Assembly: GCA_028716665.1 (NCBI GenBank)
Contig: JAQUPP010000001.1
Coordinates: 413,046-477,045 of the forward strand
From: Patescibacteria group bacterium
GTDB lineage: Bacteria > Patescibacteriota > Patescibacteriia > UBA2591 > JAQUPP01
Direction: 5' to 3'
DNA: 64,000 bases
Shown here: one piece after another, positions 3,798-48,545 of the stretch
Layout: every line of letters starts with the position of its first letter
Position numbering within the stretch: the first letter of the stretch is position 1
Program-made: the position numbers and the translations under genes
Notes under the pieces: generated by a model
Told to the model about the DNA's origin: nothing
Databases searched by the model: none
What the model saw: only the letters and a program-made list of their open reading frames with translations

Positions 3798-5615
3798 ATG
3801 GAAACAAAACGGGTGCGCAATTTTTGCATTATCAGTCACGTAGATCACGGCAAATCAACTTTAGCCGATCGTTTTTTGGAATTTACTAATACAATCACCA
3901 AAGACAAAATGAAGCCCCAATATTTGGATTTGATGCCGCTGGAGAGAGAACGAGGCATAACCATTAAGCTTCAGCCCGTAACCATGAAATATTCTTATCA
4001 GGGAGAGGTTTATACTTTTAATTTGATTGATACACCCGGCCATGTTGATTTTTCTTATGAAGTTTCGCGTTCTTTAGCCGCGGTTGAAGGAGCGATTCTG
4101 TTGGTTGATATAAGTCAGGGGATTCAAGCTCAAACTTTGGCAAATCTTCATTTGGCCAAGAAACAAGGATTAACCATTATTCCGGTTGTTAATAAAATTG
4201 ATTTGCCTAATTTTGACTTGGAAGCTGTGAAAGAAGAATTGGCGAATCTTTTAAATATTGATAAATCTGAAATTATTTGCATTTCCGCCAAAAAAGGAAT
4301 CGGCATAGAAAAAGTTTTGGAAGCGGTGATAAAAAAAGTTCCTGAGCCGAAAGATGAATCAAAACAATCTTTTCAAGCTCTTATTTTTGATTCTCATTTT
4401 GACGAATATAAGGGAGTGCTTTTGCATGTCAGAGTGTTTAAAGGAGTTATTAAAATAGATAATAGAATTAAATTATTGGGTAGTGGAGTGATTTTTCCGA
4501 CCCTGGAAGTTGGTATTTTCAGTCCAAGTCTAAAAAAACAGGATAAACTTGAAGCGGGCGACATCGGTTACATAGTGACCGGTCTTAAAGAAATTGAAAA
4601 ATGTCGGGTCGGTGATACGGCCGCTTGTTTTCCATCCCAGATAACCGCGCTTGAAGGTTATAAAGAACCGCAACCAATGGTTTTTGCCAGTATTTATCCA
4701 AAAGAAGGAACCAAAAAAGAATTATTGCGCCAAGCTTTAAGCAAATTAAAATTAAATGATGCCAGTTTGACTTTTGAGCCGATCGGCTCAGTGGCTGATC
4801 AATCTGTCTTTGGAATGGGATTCAGGGTCGGTTTTCTCGGACTTTTGCATTTGGATATTGTAAAAGAAAGATTAAAAAGAGAATATGGACTTGATTTGGT
4901 TATCACTTCGCCGAGCGTATCTTATAATATAAAATTAAAAACAGGAAAAAGTAAACTTATTTATTCACCGACGGAATTTCCAGATCCGAGTCAGGTTGAT
5001 AAAATCGAAGAACCATGGGTTAAGATTGATATTGTCACGCCGATTACCTATATCGGTTCAATTATGGAATTGTTAAGAGGATATTTGGGGATTTTCTTGT
5101 CATTGGAATATATTTCCGGCGAAAAATATGGGAAATTTCAGAGGGCCGTTCTTCATTACGAAATGCCATTAGCTTTGCTTTTGGTTGATTTTTACGACAA
5201 ACTTAAAAGTATAACCAGCGGTTATACTTCTTACAGTTATGATTTTATGGGCTATCGGCCGACCGATGTGGTTAAACTGGACATATTGGTTGCCGGCGAC
5301 GTAATAGAGCAATTATCCAGCATTGTTTATAGAGATTGGGCTCTTCGTTCAGGCCGCAGAATTGTCGGATCCTTGAAAGAAATTCTGCCGCGTCAGCTTT
5401 TCGAAGTTAAACTTCAAGCCGCGGTTGGCGGAAAAATTTTAGCCTCGGAAAAAATATCACCTCTTCGTAAAGACGTGACGGCGAAATTATACGGAGGCGA
5501 CGTGACCCGCAAAAATAAATTATTGGATAAGCAAAAAAAAGGAAAACAAAAAATGGCGCGCTTGGGAAAAGTTGATATTCCACCAGAAGCATACTTGGCT
5601 ATCATAAAAAAATAG
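3798..5615 (+). CDS. lepA: elongation factor 4 (LepA)
   Basis: HVDHGKST G1, DTPGHVDF G3 and NKID G4 motifs plus the LepA C-terminal domain. Start placed at the internal METKRV Met of the track ORF. Confidence 0.9.
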   Translation: METKRVRNFCIISHVDHGKSTLADRFLEFTNTITKDKMKPQYLDLMPLERERGITIKLQPVTMKYSYQGEVYTFNLIDTPGHVDFSYEVSRSLAAVEGAILLVDISQGIQAQTLANLHLAKKQGLTIIPVVNKIDLPNFDLEAVKEELANLLNIDKSEIICISAKKGIGIEKVLEAVIKKVPEPKDESKQSFQALIFDSHFDEYKGVLLHVRVFKGVIKIDNRIKLLGSGVIFPTLEVGIFSPSLKKQDKLEAGDIGYIVTGLKEIEKCRVGDTAACFPSQITALEGYKEPQPMVFASIYPKEGTKKELLRQALSKLKLNDASLTFEPIGSVADQSVFGMGFRVGFLGLLHLDIVKERLKREYGLDLVITSPSVSYNIKLKTGKSKLIYSPTEFPDPSQVDKIEEPWVKIDIVTPITYIGSIMELLRGYLGIFLSLEYISGEKYGKFQRAVLHYEMPLALLLVDFYDKLKSITSGYTSYSYDFMGYRPTDVVKLDILVAGDVIEQLSSIVYRDWALRSGRRIVGSLKEILPRQLFEVKLQAAVGGKILASEKISPLRKDVTAKLYGGDVTRKNKLLDKQKKGKQKMARLGKVDIPPEAYLAIIKK

Positions 5616-11440: not shown

Positions 11441-11473
11441 ATCATTTTGTTAAGACCTGCTTAAAGTTTTAAT

Positions 11474-11544
11474 TGCGGGGGGGGGATTCGAACCCCCAAC
11501 CTCCAGGTTATGGGCCTGGCGAGCTGCCACTGCTCTACCCCGCG
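11474..11544 (-). tRNA. initiator tRNA-fMet (CAT)
   Basis: Begins CGCGGGG and ends CCCCGCA-A (C1:A72 mismatch); alignable base for base with E. coli tRNA-fMet; anticodon CAT. Confidence 0.8.
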
Positions 11545-11795
11545 TCATTAAGAAATCGATTAGTTATTCTTTTCTTTTCCAAATATCCTTTTGTCGATTT
11601 TAGAAAATATTCTCTTTTATAAGCTTCGTTTTTATCGGAATATTCTTCATGATAGACTAACTTCCATGGTCGGCGAAATTTTGTCGCCCAATCTTTGCCA
11701 CGTTGATGTTCACTAAATCTTCTCTGTAAGTTAGATGTGCAACCGATATAAAATTTATTATCTTTTAAACTTTGTAATATATAAACGTAATACAC
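11535..11795 (-). CDS. GIY-YIG nuclease family protein (small, YhbQ/UPF0213-like), copy 1
   Basis: VYIL...KFYIGCT...R..EH motif set. GTG start. The last 10 nt including the stop overlap the 5' end of tRNA-fMet. Confidence 0.8.
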   Translation of the reverse strand: MYYVYILQSLKDNKFYIGCTSNLQRRFSEHQRGKDWATKFRRPWKLVYHEEYSDKNEAYKREYFLKSTKGYLEKKRITNRFLNDAG

Positions 11796-11808
11796 AATAG
11801 ATTTTAAT

Positions 11809-11867
11809 TTATGGGCCTGGCGAGACCCGAAGGGTGGCCCTTGGCCCTGCCACTGCTCTACCCCGCG
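11809..11867 (-). repeat. partial duplicate of tRNA-fMet (positions 1-37) carrying a 22-nt GC-rich double-hairpin insertion
   Basis: CGCGGGGTAGAGCAGTGGCAG-[GGCCAAGGGCCACCCTTCGGGT]-CTCGCCAGGCCCATAA, then divergence from the tRNA. Confidence 0.7.
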
Positions 11868-12118
11868 TCATTAAGAAATCGATTAGTTATTCTTTTCTTT
11901 TCCAAATATCCTTTTGTCGATTTTAGAAAATATTCTCTTTTATAAGCTTCATTTTTATCTGAATATTCTTCATGATAGACTAACTTCCATGGTCGGCGAA
12001 ATTTTGTCGCCCAATCTTTGCCACGTTGATGTTCATTAAATCTTCTCTGCAAATTAGATGTGCAACCGATATAAAATTTATTATCTTTTAAACTTTGTAA
12101 TATATAAACGTAATACAC
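11858..12118 (-). CDS. GIY-YIG nuclease family protein, copy 2 (tandem 323-bp unit)
   Basis: One amino-acid difference from copy 1. Its 3' end overlaps the partial tRNA copy just as copy 1 overlaps the intact tRNA. Confidence 0.8.
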   Translation of the reverse strand: MYYVYILQSLKDNKFYIGCTSNLQRRFNEHQRGKDWATKFRRPWKLVYHEEYSDKNEAYKREYFLKSTKGYLEKKRITNRFLNDAG

Positions 12119-12131
12119 AATAGATTTTAAT

Positions 12132-12190
12132 CTATGGGCCTGGCGAGACCCGAAGGGTGGCCCTTGGCCCTGCCACTGCTCTACCCCGCG
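12132..12190 (-). repeat. second partial tRNA-fMet 5'-half copy with the same 22-nt insertion
   Basis: Same sequence as 11809-11867 apart from one substitution in the anticodon loop; no GIY-YIG gene follows. Confidence 0.7.
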
Positions 12191-12810: not shown

Positions 12811-12874
12811 ATTCACAATATTTTAACATTTTTTTAAATCTTGTCAAACGTTTTAAAAGTGATAAACTAAACTT

Positions 12875-13633
12875 GTGAAAATTATCAGTGTTGTCAATCA
12901 AAAAGGCGGTACGGCTAAAACCACCACCTTAATAAATTTATCAGCTTATCTTGCCCGATTCGGCAAGAAAGTTTTGATTATTGATTTGGATCCGCAAGCC
13001 AATGCGAGTTCAGGATTGGGCGTGAGCGCGGAAAACAGAGACAAAGGGATTTATGAAATTTTAAGCGGAAAGATTCCTTTGACCGAAGGATTAATAGAAG
13101 TTAGAAAAAATTTTTGGCTTATTCCGGCAAATGAAAATTTAGCCGGAGCGAATATTGAAATAGTCAATTTGGAAGACAGAGAATTCCTTTTAACAAAAGC
13201 GCTTAAGCCTTTGGCAGATGATTTTGATTTTGTATTTTTTGACACTCCGCCTTCACTGGGATTAATGACCATTAACAGTTTAGTTGCTTCAAGTAGCGTT
13301 TTAATTCCAGTTCAAGCTGAATATTTCGCCCTGGAAGGATTGGGACAGCTCTTGAATACCATTAATTTGATAAAAGAAAATTTAAGACCGGATCTCAGTG
13401 TTTTAGGAGCAATCCTGACAATGTATGACACGCGCGGTAAATTGTCAGCTGATGTCTGGGAAGAATTATATAAATTTTTTCCGCATAAAATTTACAGAAC
13501 AGTTATTCCTCGCAATGTTTATTTGGCAGAAGCGCCGAGTTATGGCAAAACAATTTTAGAATATGCTCCTCGATCTCGCGGAGCAAAAGCCTACCATCGT
13601 TTAGCCAGAGAGTTTGTTTTTCACAATAAATAA
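12875..13633 (+). CDS. parA: chromosome partitioning ATPase ParA/Soj
   Basis: Deviant Walker A KGGTAKTTT and ParA family fold. GTG start. Confidence 0.85.
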   Translation: MKIISVVNQKGGTAKTTTLINLSAYLARFGKKVLIIDLDPQANASSGLGVSAENRDKGIYEILSGKIPLTEGLIEVRKNFWLIPANENLAGANIEIVNLEDREFLLTKALKPLADDFDFVFFDTPPSLGLMTINSLVASSSVLIPVQAEYFALEGLGQLLNTINLIKENLRPDLSVLGAILTMYDTRGKLSADVWEELYKFFPHKIYRTVIPRNVYLAEAPSYGKTILEYAPRSRGAKAYHRLAREFVFHNK

Positions 13634-23210: not shown

Positions 23211-23286
23211 TTAGAAAATTAAATTCAGACCTCCTGTTTCGACAGGAGGTCTTTTTTATTTATAAAAAAAGTGTAGAATATTAATC

Positions 23287-23556
23287 ATGCCCGCCCAAAT
23301 TTTTTATTACGTATACATTTTGCGCAGTTTAAAAGATAGTAAATTTTATATTGGCTTTACAAAAGATTTAAGAAGAAGACTAGAAGAACACAATAATAAA
23401 ATGTCTACATCTACTAAATCAAGAGCGCCATTTACTTTGGTTTATTATGAAGCATATCTTCATTCAGGAGATGCCAAAGAACGAGAAAGATTTTTTAAAT
23501 CTGGGTGGGGTAGAAATTATATTAAAAAATCACTTAAACGTTATTTATGTCAATAA
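23287..23556 (+). CDS. GIY-YIG nuclease family protein, copy 3
   Basis: YYVYILRS...KFYIGFT motif set. The stop overlaps the murC start. Flanked by the two halves of a 34-nt palindrome. Confidence 0.8.
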   Translation: MPAQIFYYVYILRSLKDSKFYIGFTKDLRRRLEEHNNKMSTSTKSRAPFTLVYYEAYLHSGDAKERERFFKSGWGRNYIKKSLKRYLCQ

Positions 23557-25022
23557 AAAATTTAGGCGGGAAAAAAATACATTTTATCGGCTTGGGTGGA
23601 ATCGGGGTAAGCGCTCTGGCAAAAATGATGATTCAACAGGGCAAAAAAGTTTTTGGCTCTGATTTGAATTCTTCCGAAATAATCAAGAAACTGGAAAAAA
23701 TGGGAGTTAAATTTTATCAAGGCCATAAAGCGGAAAATTTGTCAGCTGATATTGATTTGGTTATTTATTCGCCGGCCGTGGAAAAAAATAATCCGGAAAG
23801 AATAAAAGCGAAAAAATTATCCATTCCCGAATTTTCTTATCCGGAATTTTTAGGAGAATTAAGCAAAGAAAAATTCACTATTGCTGTCAGCGGCACGCAT
23901 GGCAAATCAACCACTACGGCGATTTTGGGTTTGATTTTGGAACAAGCCAAATTGGATCCGTTAGTGATTGTCGGAAGTAAGGTGCCTCAATGGAATGGAA
24001 ATTTACGCATATCACGGACTAATACGGACTCAACGCGGACCAACACGGACAGTCAGCGTAAGTCAGTGTCAGGTCAGTGTCAGTCTGTGTTTGTGGTGGA
24101 AGCTTGCGAATGGCGGGCGCATATGTTGAATTTATCGCCCAAAATGATTGTTTTGAATAATTTGGAATTGGATCATACTGATTATTATAAAGACATCGAT
24201 CATTTAATTAGAACTTTTAAAACATATATTAAAAAATTGCCCAAAGACGGAGTTATAATTTTAAACGTTGACGATGTTAATTTGACCAAGCTTAAATCAA
24301 AAAACAAGACCATAACTTTTGGCATTAAAAATCACGCCGAAGTAATGGCGAAAAATATTATTACCAAACACGGCGAGCAAATTTTTGATTTATGTTTTAA
24401 GGGTAAAACTTACAATTTCCGGTTGAAAGTTCCGGGAATTTTTAATGTTTATAATGTTTTGGCGGCAACAGCCGGCGCTTTGGCATTGGGCGTTAAACCC
24501 GAAATAATTAAAAAATCCGTAGAAAATTTCTACGGGATTTGGCGAAGATTTGAGAAAATAGGGGAATATAAAAAAGCGATTATTATTTCCGATTATGCTC
24601 ATCATCCGACTGCTGTTTCCGGCACTATTCAAGCGGCTAAAGAATTTTACCCAGGAAAAAGAATCGTGGCAATATTTCAGCCTCATCATCACAATCGGAC
24701 TAAAAAATTATTTAAGGAGTTTATCAAGTGTTTTAAAGGCGCTGACCTGACAATCATTTCGGAAATTTACGATGTAGCGGGTCGAGAAGAAGAAAAAGAT
24801 CAAGATGTCAGTTCAAAAGATTTGGTTAAAGCAATCCGCGCCAGATATGAAAAAATTCCAAATTCCAAATTCCAAATTCCAAATTCTAAAAATGTTTTAT
24901 ATGCTAAAAATTTAGTAGAAGTTAAACAACTAATATTAAAGAACATAAAGCCAGGTGACGTAATCCTTGTCATGGGCGCAGGGGATATTTATCAAATTGC
25001 CAATGATTTGGTAAAAAGATAA
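23547..25022 (+). CDS. murC: UDP-N-acetylmuramate--L-alanine ligase MurC
   Basis: GIGGIGVSALA and GTHGKSTTT motifs and the Mur ligase C-terminal domain. Contains two odd in-frame repeat insertions (see findings). Confidence 0.85.
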   Translation: MSIKNLGGKKIHFIGLGGIGVSALAKMMIQQGKKVFGSDLNSSEIIKKLEKMGVKFYQGHKAENLSADIDLVIYSPAVEKNNPERIKAKKLSIPEFSYPEFLGELSKEKFTIAVSGTHGKSTTTAILGLILEQAKLDPLVIVGSKVPQWNGNLRISRTNTDSTRTNTDSQRKSVSGQCQSVFVVEACEWRAHMLNLSPKMIVLNNLELDHTDYYKDIDHLIRTFKTYIKKLPKDGVIILNVDDVNLTKLKSKNKTITFGIKNHAEVMAKNIITKHGEQIFDLCFKGKTYNFRLKVPGIFNVYNVLAATAGALALGVKPEIIKKSVENFYGIWRRFEKIGEYKKAIIISDYAHHPTAVSGTIQAAKEFYPGKRIVAIFQPHHHNRTKKLFKEFIKCFKGADLTIISEIYDVAGREEEKDQDVSSKDLVKAIRARYEKIPNSKFQIPNSKNVLYAKNLVEVKQLILKNIKPGDVILVMGAGDIYQIANDLVKR

Positions 25023-25056
25023 TTGGGATTTATTTGAAAAAGTTTTCCACAGATTA

Positions 25057-25083
25057 TTAGCACTCGGACTTGACGAGTGCTAA
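25057..25083. promoter_or_regulatory. CIRCE operator (HrcA binding site) overlapping a TTGACG-N17-TACAAT promoter
   Basis: Perfect TTAGCACTC-N9-GAGTGCTAA inverted repeat upstream of hrcA-grpE-dnaK. Confidence 0.85.
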
Positions 25084-25240
25084 TTTTTAGTCTACAATAT
25101 TTTTTTGTATGCCAGGTAGTGAAAATTTGGTTAATAATCAATAAAGACAAGATTTTTACAAGCTGGCTTTTTAAAGAAATAAATTTATATTTTAAAAATA
25201 AATATAAAATTTAATAAATATCAAATTTCTACTACCTGGT

Positions 25241-25975
25241 ATGTTAACTCAAAGGCAAAATCAATTGCTTAAAACCATTGTCTCTCAATATATTAAAACC
25301 GCGGAGCCGGTTAGTTCAGAGTCATTGGCTGATAAATATAGATTGTCGGCCCAAGGCCGATCCGCCTCGGGCGGAAAAATAAGTCCGGCTACTATTCGCA
25401 ATGAGATGATGGAATTAACCAAAGAAAATTTTTTAATCCAGCCGCATACTTCGGCCGGCCGTATTCCCACTGAGAAGGCCTATCATTATTATATTAAAAA
25501 TTTTTTACAGCAAGAAGAAGTCAGCCAAATTGAAAAAAGAAAATTAAACAGCGCCAGAAAAGAAAATCAGTCTTTGGAAATTTCAGCCAAGAGAATCGGC
25601 GAGAAAATAGCGGAGTTGACCAACGGATTGGTTATTTTGGCTTTTGATAAAGATAATTTTTATTACACCGGCCTTTCTTCCTTGTTTAGCCAACCAGAAT
25701 TCAATCAAATGGAAGTTGTTTATAATGTTTCGCAAATTATAGATCATTTGGATCAAACCGTTGCCAAAATTTTTGACGAAATAGAAAGCAATCACCGCGT
25801 TTTTTTGGGACGAAGCAACCCGTTTGGTGATTTTTGCGGAACAATTTTAATCAAATATCATACACCAAATCAAAAAAGGGGCGTAGTATTGGGTCTTTTG
25901 GGACCGATGAGAATGGATTACAACAGAAATATCGCTTTAATAGAATATGCCAAAGAGATATTGGACAAAGTTTAG
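25241..25975 (+). CDS. hrcA: heat-inducible transcription repressor HrcA
   Basis: N-terminal wHTH alignable to B. subtilis HrcA (SPATIRNEM) with an 11-aa in-frame insertion; CIRCE lies upstream. Confidence 0.85.
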   Translation: MLTQRQNQLLKTIVSQYIKTAEPVSSESLADKYRLSAQGRSASGGKISPATIRNEMMELTKENFLIQPHTSAGRIPTEKAYHYYIKNFLQQEEVSQIEKRKLNSARKENQSLEISAKRIGEKIAELTNGLVILAFDKDNFYYTGLSSLFSQPEFNQMEVVYNVSQIIDHLDQTVAKIFDEIESNHRVFLGRSNPFGDFCGTILIKYHTPNQKRGVVLGLLGPMRMDYNRNIALIEYAKEILDKV

Positions 25976-25992
25976 AAATTAAAAATTTTATT

Positions 25993-26286
25993 ATGCCAGG
26001 TAGTGAAACTTTGATAACGATTATGTTTTATTATGTCTATGTTTTACAAAGTATAAAAAATAATGGCCTTTATGTGGGTTATACTTTAGATTTAAAGAAA
26101 AGATTACAAGAACATAATCGTAAATTAAATTTTTCTACCAAAGCAAATATCCCATGGAAACTTATTCACTATGAAGCCTATCTTAATAAAGACGATGCGC
26201 AACGTCGAGAGAAATATCTCAAAACTTCTCAAGGAGCCAGATTATTAAAGCGCATGCTTAAAGAATATTTTTATAATAATAAATAA
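25993..26286 (+). CDS. GIY-YIG nuclease family protein, copy 4 (between hrcA and grpE)
   Basis: MFYYVYVLQS...LYVGYT motif set; ATG embedded in the left terminal inverted repeat. Confidence 0.7.
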   Translation: MPGSETLITIMFYYVYVLQSIKNNGLYVGYTLDLKKRLQEHNRKLNFSTKANIPWKLIHYEAYLNKDDAQRREKYLKTSQGARLLKRMLKEYFYNNK

Positions 26287-26306
26287 TCAAAGTTCTACTA
26301 CCTGGT

Positions 26307-26837
26307 ATGTCAGATGAAGAAATAAAAAAATTGCAAGAAGAAATCGAATTAATGAAGCAACAAGCGGAAGAATATTTAAACGGCTGGAAAAGAACCAAGG
26401 CCGATTATCTTAATCGCGAAAAAGAAATTGATAAAGAAAAAATTGAATGGATAAAATTCGCCAATTTGGAATTAATTTTGAATTTTTTGCCGATTATGGA
26501 CAGCTTTGATCACTCGGTAAAAAATTTAACGGAAATAGAAAACAGTGGTTTGACAAGCTCACCACGAGATGGTTCGACTTCTTCGACAAGCTCAGGGCAA
26601 GCAAGCTCACCACAAGGCGAGTGGGCAAATGGCGTTTTAAAAATCAAAGACCAATTTGAAAGTTTTTTAAAAGCGCAGGGCGTTGAAAAAATAAAAACTT
26701 TGGGAGAAAAATTCGACCCCATGTTTCACGAAGCAATTGGCAAACAAGGGGAAGAGAATGAAATTGTTGAAGAAATTCAAAGCGGATACGTGATGCACGG
26801 CCGAGTTATCAGACCGGCGAAAGTAATAATTAAGTAA
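26307..26837 (+). CDS. grpE: nucleotide exchange factor GrpE
   Basis: GrpE coiled-coil and beta domain (FLPIMDSFD, FDPMFHEAIG) with a 23-aa in-frame insertion. Confidence 0.85.
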   Translation: MSDEEIKKLQEEIELMKQQAEEYLNGWKRTKADYLNREKEIDKEKIEWIKFANLELILNFLPIMDSFDHSVKNLTEIENSGLTSSPRDGSTSSTSSGQASSPQGEWANGVLKIKDQFESFLKAQGVEKIKTLGEKFDPMFHEAIGKQGEENEIVEEIQSGYVMHGRVIRPAKVIIK

Positions 26838-41645: not shown

Positions 41646-41795
41646 GGATTTGTCCGCCCAAGTTTTTTGCAGAAAAATTTAGGCGGATTGACAAATTTTT
41701 TAAACTTGTTAAAATAATCATTACTTAATTAATTTTATATTTCAGCCCTGAGATAGAGATATTACTTCCTATCGAGGGTGTTTATCAATTTTTTT

Positions 41796-42491: not shown

Positions 42492-43817
42492 ATGGATAAA
42501 AAATCATTGGAAATTGTAATGTTCAATATGTCGAGCTTTTCAGAATGGGAAGGCGGCATTGTGAATCGCAATTATCATATTTTCAATAAATTATCGCAAG
42601 ATGAAAAAGTAAAACGGATAATTGCCGTTGATTTTTTGCCTTTTACTTTCAGAAGAGCTTTGAGAAATTATTTGGAAAATATTTTGAAAACCACAAATTA
42701 CAAATCTAATGCAGACATAAAAGTTACAAATATTTATCGGGATTTTACCACTAAATGCGTGAAAATTGTTGGATTGGCGCCGGCTGAAATTTATGTTTTT
42801 TCAACCATTGATTCAATATTTACCCGCCCAAATTTTTTGAAGAAAAATTTAGGCGGTTTTTCTTCTCATCAAATAGTTTTAAAAAAATTAAACAAGATAT
42901 TGATTAAAATCAACAAGAATCAGCCGGAAAAAACCAAGAGAGTTATTTGGTCATATTTTCCGATGTTTGTTGACTATTTCTCGGCCCAAGGCCGATCCGC
43001 CTCGGGCGGAAATGGCATACCCGCTGATTTGACGGTTTTCGACGCAGTGGACAATTGGATTGAACATCCTTCTTTCGCGCGCTATAAAAAATTATTAGAG
43101 AAAAATTATAAAATAATTTCCCAAAAAAGCGATTTAATTTTCACCGTAGCGGAAAATTTGGTGGAATTTTTTAAAAATTTAGGCAGGAACAAAGATGTCT
43201 ATTGGATCGCCAACGGCGTTGAACCCAAGCATTTTGCCAAGGAACAGTCTGTGCTTAAAAATGATCCCATTTTAATGATTTCTCGTCCGATTATCGGTTA
43301 TGTCGGGACAATTCAAAACAGGGTTGATTTTAATCTTTTGGAATATTTGGCTCAGCAAAATCCTGATAAATCTTTTGTCTTGATTGGTCCGCTTTGGCCG
43401 GTCTTTTTGAGAAAATTGCGCCGACCGACTACGGAAATAAAAAAATTGAAAAAATACAAAAATATTCATTTATTGGGCCGCCGACCATATGATTTGACAC
43501 CGGCTTATATTAAATTTTTTGACGTGGCGATTAATCCTCATAAACTCGATGAATTTATAAAATACACAGATTCTTTAAAGGTTTTGGAATATTTGGCTTG
43601 CGGTATGCCAGTGGTAACTACGCCGCCCTCGGGCGTGGAAAAATTTTCTCACCTTCTTTATATTGCCGCAGATTACCAAGATTTTAATAAAAATATTGAG
43701 ACAGCTCTTGCCGAAAATCAGCCGGAATTAAAAGAGAAAAGATTAATAAGAATAAAAGAAGAGGATTGGGACAATAAACTTTTAGAAATGATGAATATTT
43801 TAAAAACTAAGATTTAA
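42492..43817 (+). CDS. glycosyltransferase family 1 (GT4-like)
   Basis: C-terminal LEYLACGMPVVTTP. Contains the 34-nt palindrome and the 32-nt double-hairpin insert, both in frame. Confidence 0.55.
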   Translation: MDKKSLEIVMFNMSSFSEWEGGIVNRNYHIFNKLSQDEKVKRIIAVDFLPFTFRRALRNYLENILKTTNYKSNADIKVTNIYRDFTTKCVKIVGLAPAEIYVFSTIDSIFTRPNFLKKNLGGFSSHQIVLKKLNKILIKINKNQPEKTKRVIWSYFPMFVDYFSAQGRSASGGNGIPADLTVFDAVDNWIEHPSFARYKKLLEKNYKIISQKSDLIFTVAENLVEFFKNLGRNKDVYWIANGVEPKHFAKEQSVLKNDPILMISRPIIGYVGTIQNRVDFNLLEYLAQQNPDKSFVLIGPLWPVFLRKLRRPTTEIKKLKKYKNIHLLGRRPYDLTPAYIKFFDVAINPHKLDEFIKYTDSLKVLEYLACGMPVVTTPPSGVEKFSHLLYIAADYQDFNKNIETALAENQPELKEKRLIRIKEEDWDNKLLEMMNILKTKI

Positions 43818-47291: not shown

Positions 47292-48092
47292 ATGTTATCC
47301 ATAATCATTGTTAATCACAATCATCGAAATTATTTAAAGCAATGTTTGAAAAATATTGTTGAGGCCAATATCAATCTTGATTTTGAGGTGATTATTATTG
47401 ATAATAATTCAAAAGATACAAGCAAAAAGTTTTTGTCAGAATTTAATATGCCGTCTCTAAAATTCAGAGTTATTTTAAATAATAAGAATTATGGTTTTGC
47501 CAAGGCTAATAATCAGGGGATTAAATTGGCTCAAGGAAAATATGTTTTAGTTTTAAATCCGGACGTGATTGTTTTAAAAGATTCAGTGGAAAAACTTTAT
47601 AAATTTTTAGGAGAAAATAATGAAGCGGCAATGGTTGGTCCCAAGCTTTTAAATCCCAACGGAACGATTCAGTATTCTTGTTGTAAATTTCCTTACTGGT
47701 ATATGCCGATTCTCCGCCGAACTTTTTTAGGGAAGCTTCCTTTTTTGAAAAATAAATTGGGTAAATATTTAATGTCAGATTGGAAACACAATGAAGCAAG
47801 AGAAGTGGATTGGCTTTTGGGCGCGGCCTTGATGATTAAAAAAGAAGTTTTGGAAAAAATCAATTATTTTGATGAAAGATTTTTTCTTTATTTCGAAGAC
47901 ACTGATTTAGCGAGACGGATTTGGAAATTCGGCAAGAAAGTTTATTACTTGCCAGAAGCTCAAATGTATCATTTTCATCAGCGGCTCTCGGCGGAACGCA
48001 GCGCCAGTCCGACTTTATTGTCCAGAATTACCTGGATTCATATTGCCAGCGGAATCAAATATTTTTGTAAATGGCTTAACCCTCGGCTGTAG
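47292..48092 (+). CDS. glycosyltransferase family 2
   Basis: LSIIIVNHN...DNNSKD...LVLNPD motifs; a GC-rich hairpin lies at its 3' end. Confidence 0.65.
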   Translation: MLSIIIVNHNHRNYLKQCLKNIVEANINLDFEVIIIDNNSKDTSKKFLSEFNMPSLKFRVILNNKNYGFAKANNQGIKLAQGKYVLVLNPDVIVLKDSVEKLYKFLGENNEAAMVGPKLLNPNGTIQYSCCKFPYWYMPILRRTFLGKLPFLKNKLGKYLMSDWKHNEAREVDWLLGAALMIKKEVLEKINYFDERFFLYFEDTDLARRIWKFGKKVYYLPEAQMYHFHQRLSAERSASPTLLSRITWIHIASGIKYFCKWLNPRL

Positions 48093-48207
48093 CCTTACGG
48101 GCGAAGAAAATAATTTGCCAAATTTTGAAAATTTGTTATAATAATTTTAATATTGCGGGATCGTCCCTCGGCCGTAGCCAGTAGGCTACTGCCTACGGGC
48201 GAGGCTA

Positions 48208-48462
48208 ATGGTAAATAAAACAATGCATACAATTTATGTTTTAAGAAGTCTGAAAGATGATAATTTATATATAGGCTGTACTTCTGATTTACAGAAGAGA
48301 TTAAGAGAACATAGAAATAAAAAAGTTTTTTCTACTCGCAATAGGTTGCCAATGAAGTTAATTTATTTTGAAAATTACCCTGATAAATATGAAGCTTATA
48401 GAATGGAAAGATTTTATAAAACCGCTAAAGGTAAAAAAATAATTAAAAACAAAATAATATAA
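48208..48462 (+). CDS. GIY-YIG nuclease family protein, copy 5 (immediately 5' of tRNA-Gln)
   Basis: IYVLRS...LYIGCT motif set; flanked by 12-nt direct repeats TGCGGGATCGTC. Confidence 0.75.
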   Translation: MVNKTMHTIYVLRSLKDDNLYIGCTSDLQKRLREHRNKKVFSTRNRLPMKLIYFENYPDKYEAYRMERFYKTAKGKKIIKNKII

Positions 48463-48469
48463 TAAATAA

Positions 48470-48545
48470 TGCGGGATCGTCTAATGGTAGGACTCCAGCC
48501 TTTGGAGCTGGCTATGATGGTTCGAATCCATCTCCCGCAGCCAAA
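48470..48545 (+). tRNA. tRNA-Gln (TTG)
   Basis: U1-A72 acceptor typical of bacterial tRNA-Gln, anticodon loop CTTTGGA, GGTTCGAATCC T-arm, encoded CCA. Confidence 0.8.

Follow-up and report, generated by a model that had tools for sequence, protein, structure and literature searches.

A 281-bp insertion-sequence-like element with a single-domain GIY-YIG nuclease gene probably occupies the murC start codon of a Patescibacteria bacterium

A 64-kb stretch of contig JAQUPP010000001.1 from a Patescibacteria group bacterium, referred to below in its full length as the window, carries upstream of murC a small GIY-YIG nuclease gene (copy 3) set between the two halves of a palindrome that is found intact elsewhere in the same stretch. 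Comparison with related loci makes it probable that copy 3 is a 281-bp micro-element resembling an insertion sequence (IS), with the GIY-YIG gene as its cargo, rather than a gene dropped into a resident palindrome, and that the intact palindromes are its cargo-less derivatives. Fetched relative loci and homologous proteins are designated by L- and P-numbers, respectively. The palindrome and half-site sequences quoted in the original prediction, which was made from the letters of the window, are present where it placed them; the palindrome, taken there as 34 nt long, measures 35 nt with a terminal C/G pair, and the window holds five GIY-YIG open reading frames (ORFs) instead of three or four. 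The gene had also been described as lying between murG and murC, but its upstream neighbour is an unannotated ORF of 222 aa, for which an exact-protein lookup gave no match, and murG is situated three genes further up.

The left half of the palindrome, CCCGCCCAAATTTTTT, occupies positions 23290-23305, immediately 3' of the ATG at 23287-23289, and the right half, AAAAAATTTAGGCGGG, positions 23555-23570. A repeat finder returned arms of 19 nt each (23290-23308 and 23552-23570), 95% complementary and 243 nt apart. The resemblance of the half-sites to the palindrome, on which the original prediction was built, exceeds chance: the 14-mer AAAAATTTAGGCGG has three exact matches in the window, whereas 100 dinucleotide shuffles gave a mean of 0.00, and the 15-mer left half, with up to two mismatches allowed, has seven matches against 1.7 expected. 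One identical imperfection, a left-arm C opposite a right-arm A, is present in all three window copies, which points to a shared origin rather than independent palindromes. Beyond PF01541, no second domain was detected by Pfam in the 89-aa protein, whose homologues are 76-105 aa long, and the GIY-YIG copies of the window do not differ from each other at the catalytic Tyr, Tyr, Arg, and Glu columns. In the predicted fold of its single-stranded DNA (ssDNA), the element closes on a stem formed by the two paired repeats. The murC ORF overlaps the 3' end of the GIY-YIG ORF. A promoter scan 5' of the ATG at 23287 revealed no consensus promoter, only the terminator of the upstream gene (23227-23252); therefore, no leaderless or promoter-capture mechanism is claimed.

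Three syntenic murG-x-x-murC-hrcA-grpE-dnaK loci (L111, L112, and L114), with MurC homologues 90, 85, and 81% identical to that of the window, lack the GIY-YIG gene. Their murC sites read ...aatcATG|ACTTTA or ...ggtATG|AATTTA, with identical upstream sequence, and the palindrome is absent at the murC start in all three. The L114 sequence matches the window exactly as far as ...gaatattaatcATG; its junction is ...gtgtagaatattaatcATG ACTTTACCAAAAATT AAAAAAATACATTTTATCGGC, and that of the window is ...gtgtagaatattaatcATG [CCCGCCC...GGCGGG] AAAAAAATACATTTTATCGGC, with the element directly after the ATG. Because the orthologous empty sites contain no palindrome, the half-sites came with the gene and represent the terminal inverted repeats of the element itself. 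By these alignments, the insertion comprised the entire unit with its two half-sites and took place immediately 3' of the murC start codon. The right junction is shorter than expected by ~18 nt, corresponding to the second ATG and codons 2-6. The ATG inside the element appears as ATGTCAA in the window vs. AAATCAA in the sister element of L003, and the N-terminus of MurC reads MSIKNLGG-KKIHF in the window vs. MTLPKI/MNLQKV-KKIHF in the relatives. Owing to the loss of ~18 nt and the new internal ATG, the right repeat now codes for MurC residues 3-8. The right arm thus encodes codons 4-8 (KNLGG) of murC, as noticed from the window alone, and a comparison of MurC N-termini, proposed at the same time, found these codons missing in the relatives.

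The closest homologues of the copy 3 protein, P0002 (89% identity) and P0003 (76%), both begin with MPAQIF and are enclosed by the same repeats. Their elements sit on the parA start codon of two other organisms with TATG on either side, the junctions being ...aaaagTATG|CCCGCCC...GGCGGG|TATGaaaatt in L003 and ...aagaTATG|...|TATGcagcc in L005. The parA start of the window contains neither the element nor the palindrome and reads ...gataaactaaacttGTGaaaatt vs. ...gataaactaaaagTATG[element]TATGaaaatt in L003, with ~70 nt upstream identical. The L003 and L004 contigs share their two samples with L112 and L113, whose murC site is empty. In the window, murC is occupied and parA is empty, and the reverse is found in contigs from JGI sample 3300029288, which probably derive from one organism; the occupancy of the two sites therefore appears to be reciprocal between close relatives.

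Members of a second repeat family, whose 19-nt inverted repeat CCAGGTAGTGAAACTTTGA differs from that of copy 3, occupy the start codons of hrcA and grpE in the window; the former has no cargo, and the latter encloses the fifth GIY-YIG ORF (Table 1). The second ATG at the grpE insertion is the grpE start codon. Both sites are empty, with a single TATG, in L111, L112, and L114, and by this comparison the TATG pairs at hrcA and grpE are textbook target-site duplications. As a separate observation, L114 carries at 4520-4640 a unit of ~110 bp with inverted repeats CCCCGTTACAAATTT and TTAGC flanks, inserted in the CIRCE operator 5' of hrcA, within its left arm; the CIRCE element of the window is intact (~25055-25085).

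Table 1. Coordinates in the window of copy 3, its parts, and the related elements and sites.
Feature	Position	Strand	Evidence or remark
Putative mobile unit of 281 bp (inverted repeat, GIY-YIG gene, inverted repeat)	23290-23570	+	Absent from orthologous murC loci of three relatives
Left flank CATG, with the ancestral murC start codon from which the GIY-YIG ORF now starts	23286-23289	+	Empty murC sites of relatives
Left terminal inverted repeat CCCGCCCAAATTTTTTATT, in-frame reading PAQIFY	23290-23308	+	Repeat finder; same repeat at parA insertions in L003 and L005 and in 24 metagenome elements
GIY-YIG nuclease ORF, 89 aa, single domain	23287-23556	+	Pfam PF01541, E 9e-15, residues 7-72
Right terminal inverted repeat AATAAAAAATTTAGGCGGG, now coding MurC residues 3-8	23552-23570	+	Repeat finder; ORF reading
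murC, present start codon inside the element	23547-25022	+	N-terminus MSIKNLGG, vs. MTLPKI/MNLQKV in relatives
parA start region, empty site for an element 89% identical to copy 3	12860-12880	+	Comparison with L003
Cargo-less 128-bp second-family member on the hrcA start codon	25112-25239	+	TATG at 25108-25111 and 25240-25243
Second-family element (CCAGGTAGTGAAACTTTGA repeats) with the fifth GIY-YIG ORF (25993-26286), on the grpE start codon	25996-26305	+	TATG at 25992-25995 and 26306-26309
Cargo-less copy upstream of rpsI, 35-nt palindrome, TTG on both sides	41653-41687	.	Absent from L074
Cargo-less copy inside a GT1 glycosyltransferase gene, in-frame reading TRPNFLKKNLGG	42823-42857	.	Insert absent from homologues

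In the bare 35-nt palindromes, the same two repeats are separated by just 4-5 nt. In L074, which is ~90% identical to the window over 37.4-45.1 kb, the GT1 copy is present and the copy upstream of rpsI is absent, leaving a 39-nt indel in conserved surroundings; the latter palindrome folds as a hairpin (z -4.8). The 14-residue insert TRPNFLKKNLGGFS of the GT1 protein is missing in all eight aligned homologues, including one at 74% identity. Since 35 nt plus a 4-nt duplication make 39 nt, or 13 codons, in-frame insertion within genes is possible. A scan of GTDB genomes, one per species, revealed 73 intact bare palindromes in 71 stretches, nearly all from Patescibacteria (Saccharibacteria and orders of Parcubacteria), a single genome having at most six. 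Exact 4-nt flanking repeats were observed at 11 of the 73 (0.6% expected per site), and a GIY-YIG gene was located within 8 kb at only 3 of the 71 loci. The bare palindromes of the window share the left-arm C of a gene-bearing subfamily with the left arm CCGCCC, which suggests that they derive from it. On this evidence, the 35-nt palindromes are cargo-less derivatives of the element, similar to miniature inverted-repeat transposable elements (MITEs), and not empty target sites.

Several minor observations concern the surroundings of such palindromes. The CCCGCC palindrome is nested in other conserved, partly palindromic sequence in several genomes (L018, L015, L028, L066, and L077), e.g., ccctcggctcc[...]gtcgctcggg, and the six copies of Saccharibacteria genome CAYUSS01 have longer common flanks, suggestive of composite or nested repeat units. 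A further in-frame, hairpin-rich insert of the window, GGCCCAAGGCCGATCCGCCTCGGGCGGA (42983-43012), gives the GT1 protein ~10 extra residues compared to its homologues, and an imperfect palindrome at 24020-24085 adds ~20-25 residues (SRTNTDSTRTNTDSQRKSVSGQCQS) to MurC, in a region of variable length among relatives.

The gene-bearing form was surveyed by a metagenome scan for two repeat halves 235-265 nt apart; the 26 stretches obtained, together with L005 and the window copy, gave 24 distinct elements. All of these except two degenerate ones contain a GIY-YIG ORF. Identical 4-nt repeats, TATG in 10 cases, are present on both sides of 11 elements, and the flanking repeat is 3 nt long in another four. 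In nine of the ten TATG-flanked cases, the downstream ATG opens a host ORF of 90-528 aa, including those with ParA-, AtpA-, and RsmI-like N-termini. In the tenth (L099), the element is followed by a 110-nt cargo-less element, then by TATG and an rplI-like ORF; this order of parts is that of a serial insertion of two elements at one regenerated start-codon target. Most elements have their TAG stop codon in the right repeat. Where the left arm has the common form CCGCCT, reading from the upstream ATG gives MPA-stop, and an internal ATG opens the ORF; in the subfamily of the window (CCGCCC), the T-to-C change removes the TAA and the upstream ATG reads through (MPAQIF), which accounts for the shared C/A asymmetry of the repeat arms.

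The GIY-YIG nucleases cluster roughly by repeat family, and three different repeat families were distinguished, each with its own GIY-YIG variant. In the 806 kb of fetched loci, a biased sample, the spacing of repeat pairs was <=80 nt or 231-320 nt in 128 of 138 pairs, and no transposase-sized unit with these repeats was detected, apart from a few odd spacings (L092, L023, and L025). The third family (CCCTGTTAAATAA / CCCTGTGAAAT) bounds further GIY-YIG ORFs (L004 1230-1545; L123 1480-1800), one of its elements being located between parA and parB and the other splitting a gene for a 23S-rRNA-intervening-sequence protein mid-ORF.

Judging by all these junctions, it can be regarded as demonstrated that (T)ATG, in most cases at a start codon, is the insertion target of the unit, that 3-4 bp are duplicated there, and that forms with and without cargo exist. 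The element consists of two 16-19-nt terminal inverted repeats (CCCGCCYAARTTTTT...) around one ORF for a single-domain GIY-YIG nuclease of 85-97 aa related to the Ssn nucleases. Its insertion at (T)ATG, overwhelmingly at host start codons, would leave the 4-bp direct repeat TATG, so that the upstream ATG and the host expression signals may serve the element and the downstream ATG may restore the host gene. At murC, insertion right after the start codon would have been followed by the loss of ~18 nt (the duplicated ATG and codons 2-6) and by the rise of a new ATG within the element. In ssDNA, the two repeats are predicted to pair into the same stem as that of the bare hairpin. The encoded Ssn-like nuclease could then bind this stem and cleave each strand immediately 5' of the stem, at the TATG|CCCGCC junctions, after which host repair or ligation could finish excision or copying, together with insertion at a staggered cut in TATG. 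That the ~90-aa GIY-YIG protein is itself the mobility enzyme, and hence a new class of transposase, is proposed tentatively, with somewhat less than even confidence. If so, the 281-bp element would be the smallest self-mobilising bacterial DNA element known, recognising its own ends as an ssDNA hairpin, targeting start codons, and seeding 35-bp in-frame hairpin MITEs across Patescibacteria.

Several observations weigh against these interpretations. The murC copy itself has no right-hand TATG, and its duplication is inferred from the sister insertions. The flanking repeats vary between 3 and 4 nt, and most bare palindromes have none. The empty parA site of the window reads cttGTG vs. agTATG in L003, with three differences clustered at the junction (12870-12880 vs. 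L003 120-135), which could represent an excision footprint, co-conversion, or drift. Enrichment at start codons could partly reflect survivorship and not targeting, although by rough reasoning, made without computation, the bias is stronger than survivorship alone would give. The loci were chosen by their repeat pattern, so that any larger element combining these repeats with a conventional transposase could have escaped notice. Finally, we know of no transposition chemistry for a hydrolytic GIY-YIG nuclease alone, and strand joining would need host factors.

The two explanations first offered for copy 3 were a homing endonuclease and a MITE with and without cargo. The second is borne out by the common termini of the two forms, by the presence/absence polymorphism of both between close relatives, and by the short direct repeats flanking both. 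Under homing, the palindrome would be a dispersed host sequence whose centre is cut by the GIY-YIG enzyme so that the gene copies itself in, and the intact palindromes would be unoccupied targets. Such a reading fits the exact position of the gene between two halves of a sequence intact elsewhere, the wide distribution of the palindrome in Patescibacteria, and the existence of homing endonucleases among GIY-YIG enzymes. It is nevertheless contradicted at this locus and very improbable, since no palindrome is present at the empty murC sites of three genomes (L111, L112, and L114), at parA of the window, or at hrcA and grpE of the relatives; moreover, homing by double-strand-break repair does not make 4-bp direct repeats, the protein lacks a domain for DNA binding, the bare palindrome too is an indel bordered by short repeats, and few palindrome loci have a GIY-YIG gene nearby. 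It is scarcely credible that the palindromes are ordinary terminators or regulatory hairpins, alike by chance or convergence. Their folds are stable and one of them is intergenic, upstream of rpsI, but the copies have exact 14-16-mers in common with 0 expected and even the same mismatch. One copy lies in frame within a coding region and one is an indel between strains, so the concern that the palindrome might simply be a common terminator falls away; by direct reading of the sequence, the intergenic copy has no immediate T-run downstream, no scan for terminator features having been made.

The main rival to the IS-like micro-element, an unlikely one on present evidence, attributes the repeats to a conventional insertion sequence with its transposase acting in trans, the GIY-YIG ORF being MITE cargo without a role in movement. 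Inverted repeats with a 3-4-bp duplication are the classic signature of DDE transposons, GIY-YIG-only proteins have no known transposase activity, and bare copies far outnumber gene-bearing ones in genomes. On the other hand, every intact split-repeat unit of this size that was found holds a GIY-YIG ORF fused to the repeats, with the stop in the right repeat and the start abutting the left one. Each of the three repeat families has its own GIY-YIG variant, the biased sample of 806 kb contains no transposase-sized unit, and the related Ssn enzymes recognise hairpins flanking their own genes (PMC11893778). It is also quite unlikely that nuclease and hairpins form a domesticated system in the service of the host, e.g., restricting or shaping the recombination of incoming ssDNA as proposed for Neisseria, and that their mobility is historical. 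The role of Ssn in the transformation of N. meningitidis, the conservation of the hairpin sequence across very distant Patescibacteria, and the retention of five GIY-YIG genes in 64 kb of a small genome are in favour of domestication. However, presence and absence vary, reciprocally, at several loci between genomes 81-90% identical, insertions occur serially at one start codon, and one element disrupts a gene. Such polymorphism, serial insertion, and gene disruption indicate recent selfish activity, although host and selfish roles are not mutually exclusive.

The nearest described system is that of the Ssn enzymes, single-domain GIY-YIG nucleases of ~94 aa (CDD cd10448) that bind to ssDNA at hairpin repeats (NTS/SRM), cleave immediately upstream of these, and are also active on a hairpin split over two oligonucleotides (Chenal et al. 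2025, Nat Commun 16:2388, PMC11893778). Ssn genes are flanked by hairpin repeats; an IS-like layout and an analogy to REP/RAYT were noted, with mobility only hypothesised, Ssn was found to modulate transformation in N. meningitidis, and Rickettsia is among the SRM-rich genomes (PMC11893778). Copy 3 agrees with Ssn/SRM in the single-domain protein of ~90 aa and in a gene set between inverted repeats able to form hairpins, of which solitary copies are present at other places in the genome. It differs in that its flanks are halves of one hairpin with the gene in the loop, whereas Ssn genes are flanked by complete hairpins, and in its host, a member of Patescibacteria. For Ssn, no empty sites, flank duplications, insertions at start codons, or bare copies in frame were reported, all of which are seen with elements of the copy 3 type.

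The copy 3 protein is 38% identical (BLASTP E 1e-13) to a 94-aa Rhizobium GIY-YIG protein whose gene is flanked by canonical SRM hairpins, with 47 bits to this protein vs. 31 bits to UPF0213 structures and ~20 bits to Slx1. The published SRM consensus HGTCWY... had no match in the window vs. four in the Rhizobium control. A PDB sequence search with the copy 3 protein returned only UPF0213 and Slx1 and no Ssn structure, and NCBIfam gave only sub-threshold matches, to the intron endonuclease model TIGR01453 (30 bits vs. a cut-off of 56) and to UvrC-type models. A homology search seeded with the Rhizobium protein had only Rhizobiales among the matches listed.

With insertion sequences and MITEs, the element has in common terminal inverted repeats, short target duplications, empty orthologous sites, occurrence at many loci, and short cargo-less derivatives. 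Its only ORF, unlike those of insertion sequences, encodes a GIY-YIG nuclease and not a DDE, HUH, serine, or tyrosine transposase; the ~285-bp unit is far below the size of known autonomous ones (IS200, ~700 bp), and its start-codon target is both used and regenerated. IS200/IS605 and REP/RAYT resemble it in a hairpin recognised in ssDNA, a short specific target, and small palindromic repeats multiplied together with one flanked small protein gene. Those systems have a Y1 HUH transposase and subterminal hairpins rather than terminal inverted repeats and make no duplication, whereas the present element has no Y1 HUH ORF, its repeats are terminal, and duplications are present. The I-TevI/Seg homing endonucleases are similar in the GIY-YIG catalytic domain and in selfish spread; the element differs from them in the absence of a DNA-binding domain, of an intron, and of a recognition sequence in empty sites, and in its flank duplications. 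The Rickettsia palindromic elements (RPE) are reportedly short palindromic repeats of ~100-150 bp lying in frame within protein genes, thus alike in in-frame palindrome insertion, larger, and not known to be related in sequence. In the searchable literature on bacteria, Patescibacteria included, a search for GIY-YIG elements that combine inverted repeats with target duplications yielded no report other than PMC11893778. The element is best classed as a variant of the association between Ssn and hairpin repeats that is new, demonstrably mobile, and inserted at start codons.

The link between single-domain GIY-YIG proteins and hairpin repeats was described only in 2025, with the mobile-element idea left as a hypothesis. 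Comparative evidence of mobility now comes from the loci analysed here, where empty sites are precise, targets are duplicated, occupancy is reciprocal between close relatives, insertions occur serially, and derivatives without cargo exist. The same loci point to an unusual lifestyle, with insertion exactly at a start codon, expression from the signals of the host gene, and regeneration of the host ATG. Repeat ends turn into coding sequence, as in MurC residues 3-8 and the 14-residue glycosyltransferase insert, which bears on protein insertions in the small genomes of Patescibacteria. The element is a testable candidate for a minimal transposition system, and its hairpin/enzyme combinations offer natural pairs for ssDNA tools. 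If the GIY-YIG protein is the mobility enzyme, this would explain the multiplication of Ssn-associated hairpin repeats (NTS/dRS3-like and possibly RPE-like) in other bacteria.

The remaining GIY-YIG ORFs of the window are associated with tRNA genes. Two tandem ORFs (11535-11795 and 11858-12118) are situated on the minus strand (11473-12190), 5' of a tRNA-Met of initiator-like type (11473-11544). A copy of the 5' part of tRNA-Met up to the anticodon loop, broken by a 22-nt double hairpin (GGCCAAGGGCCACCCTTCGGGT), precedes each ORF, and the TAG at which each ORF stops falls within the tRNA 5' end that follows; the repeat period is 323 nt, and the tandem unit looks like an insertion into a tRNA gene with regeneration of the 5' half. 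Immediately 5' of tRNA-Gln (48470-48543) is a fourth ORF (48208-48462); the initial 21 nt of this tRNA have a second copy at 48148-48208, split there by a 39-nt imperfect palindrome (CCTCGGCCGTAGCC...GGGCGAGG), with a related hairpin at 48083-48108. In L115 (1400-1820), the gene of the homologue P0053, a protein found in 43 blocks of the assembly collection, follows tRNA-Gly; its 3' end contains a duplicate of the tRNA anticodon arm, followed by the mini-palindrome CCCGCCCAATTGGCGGG just before the infC start codon.

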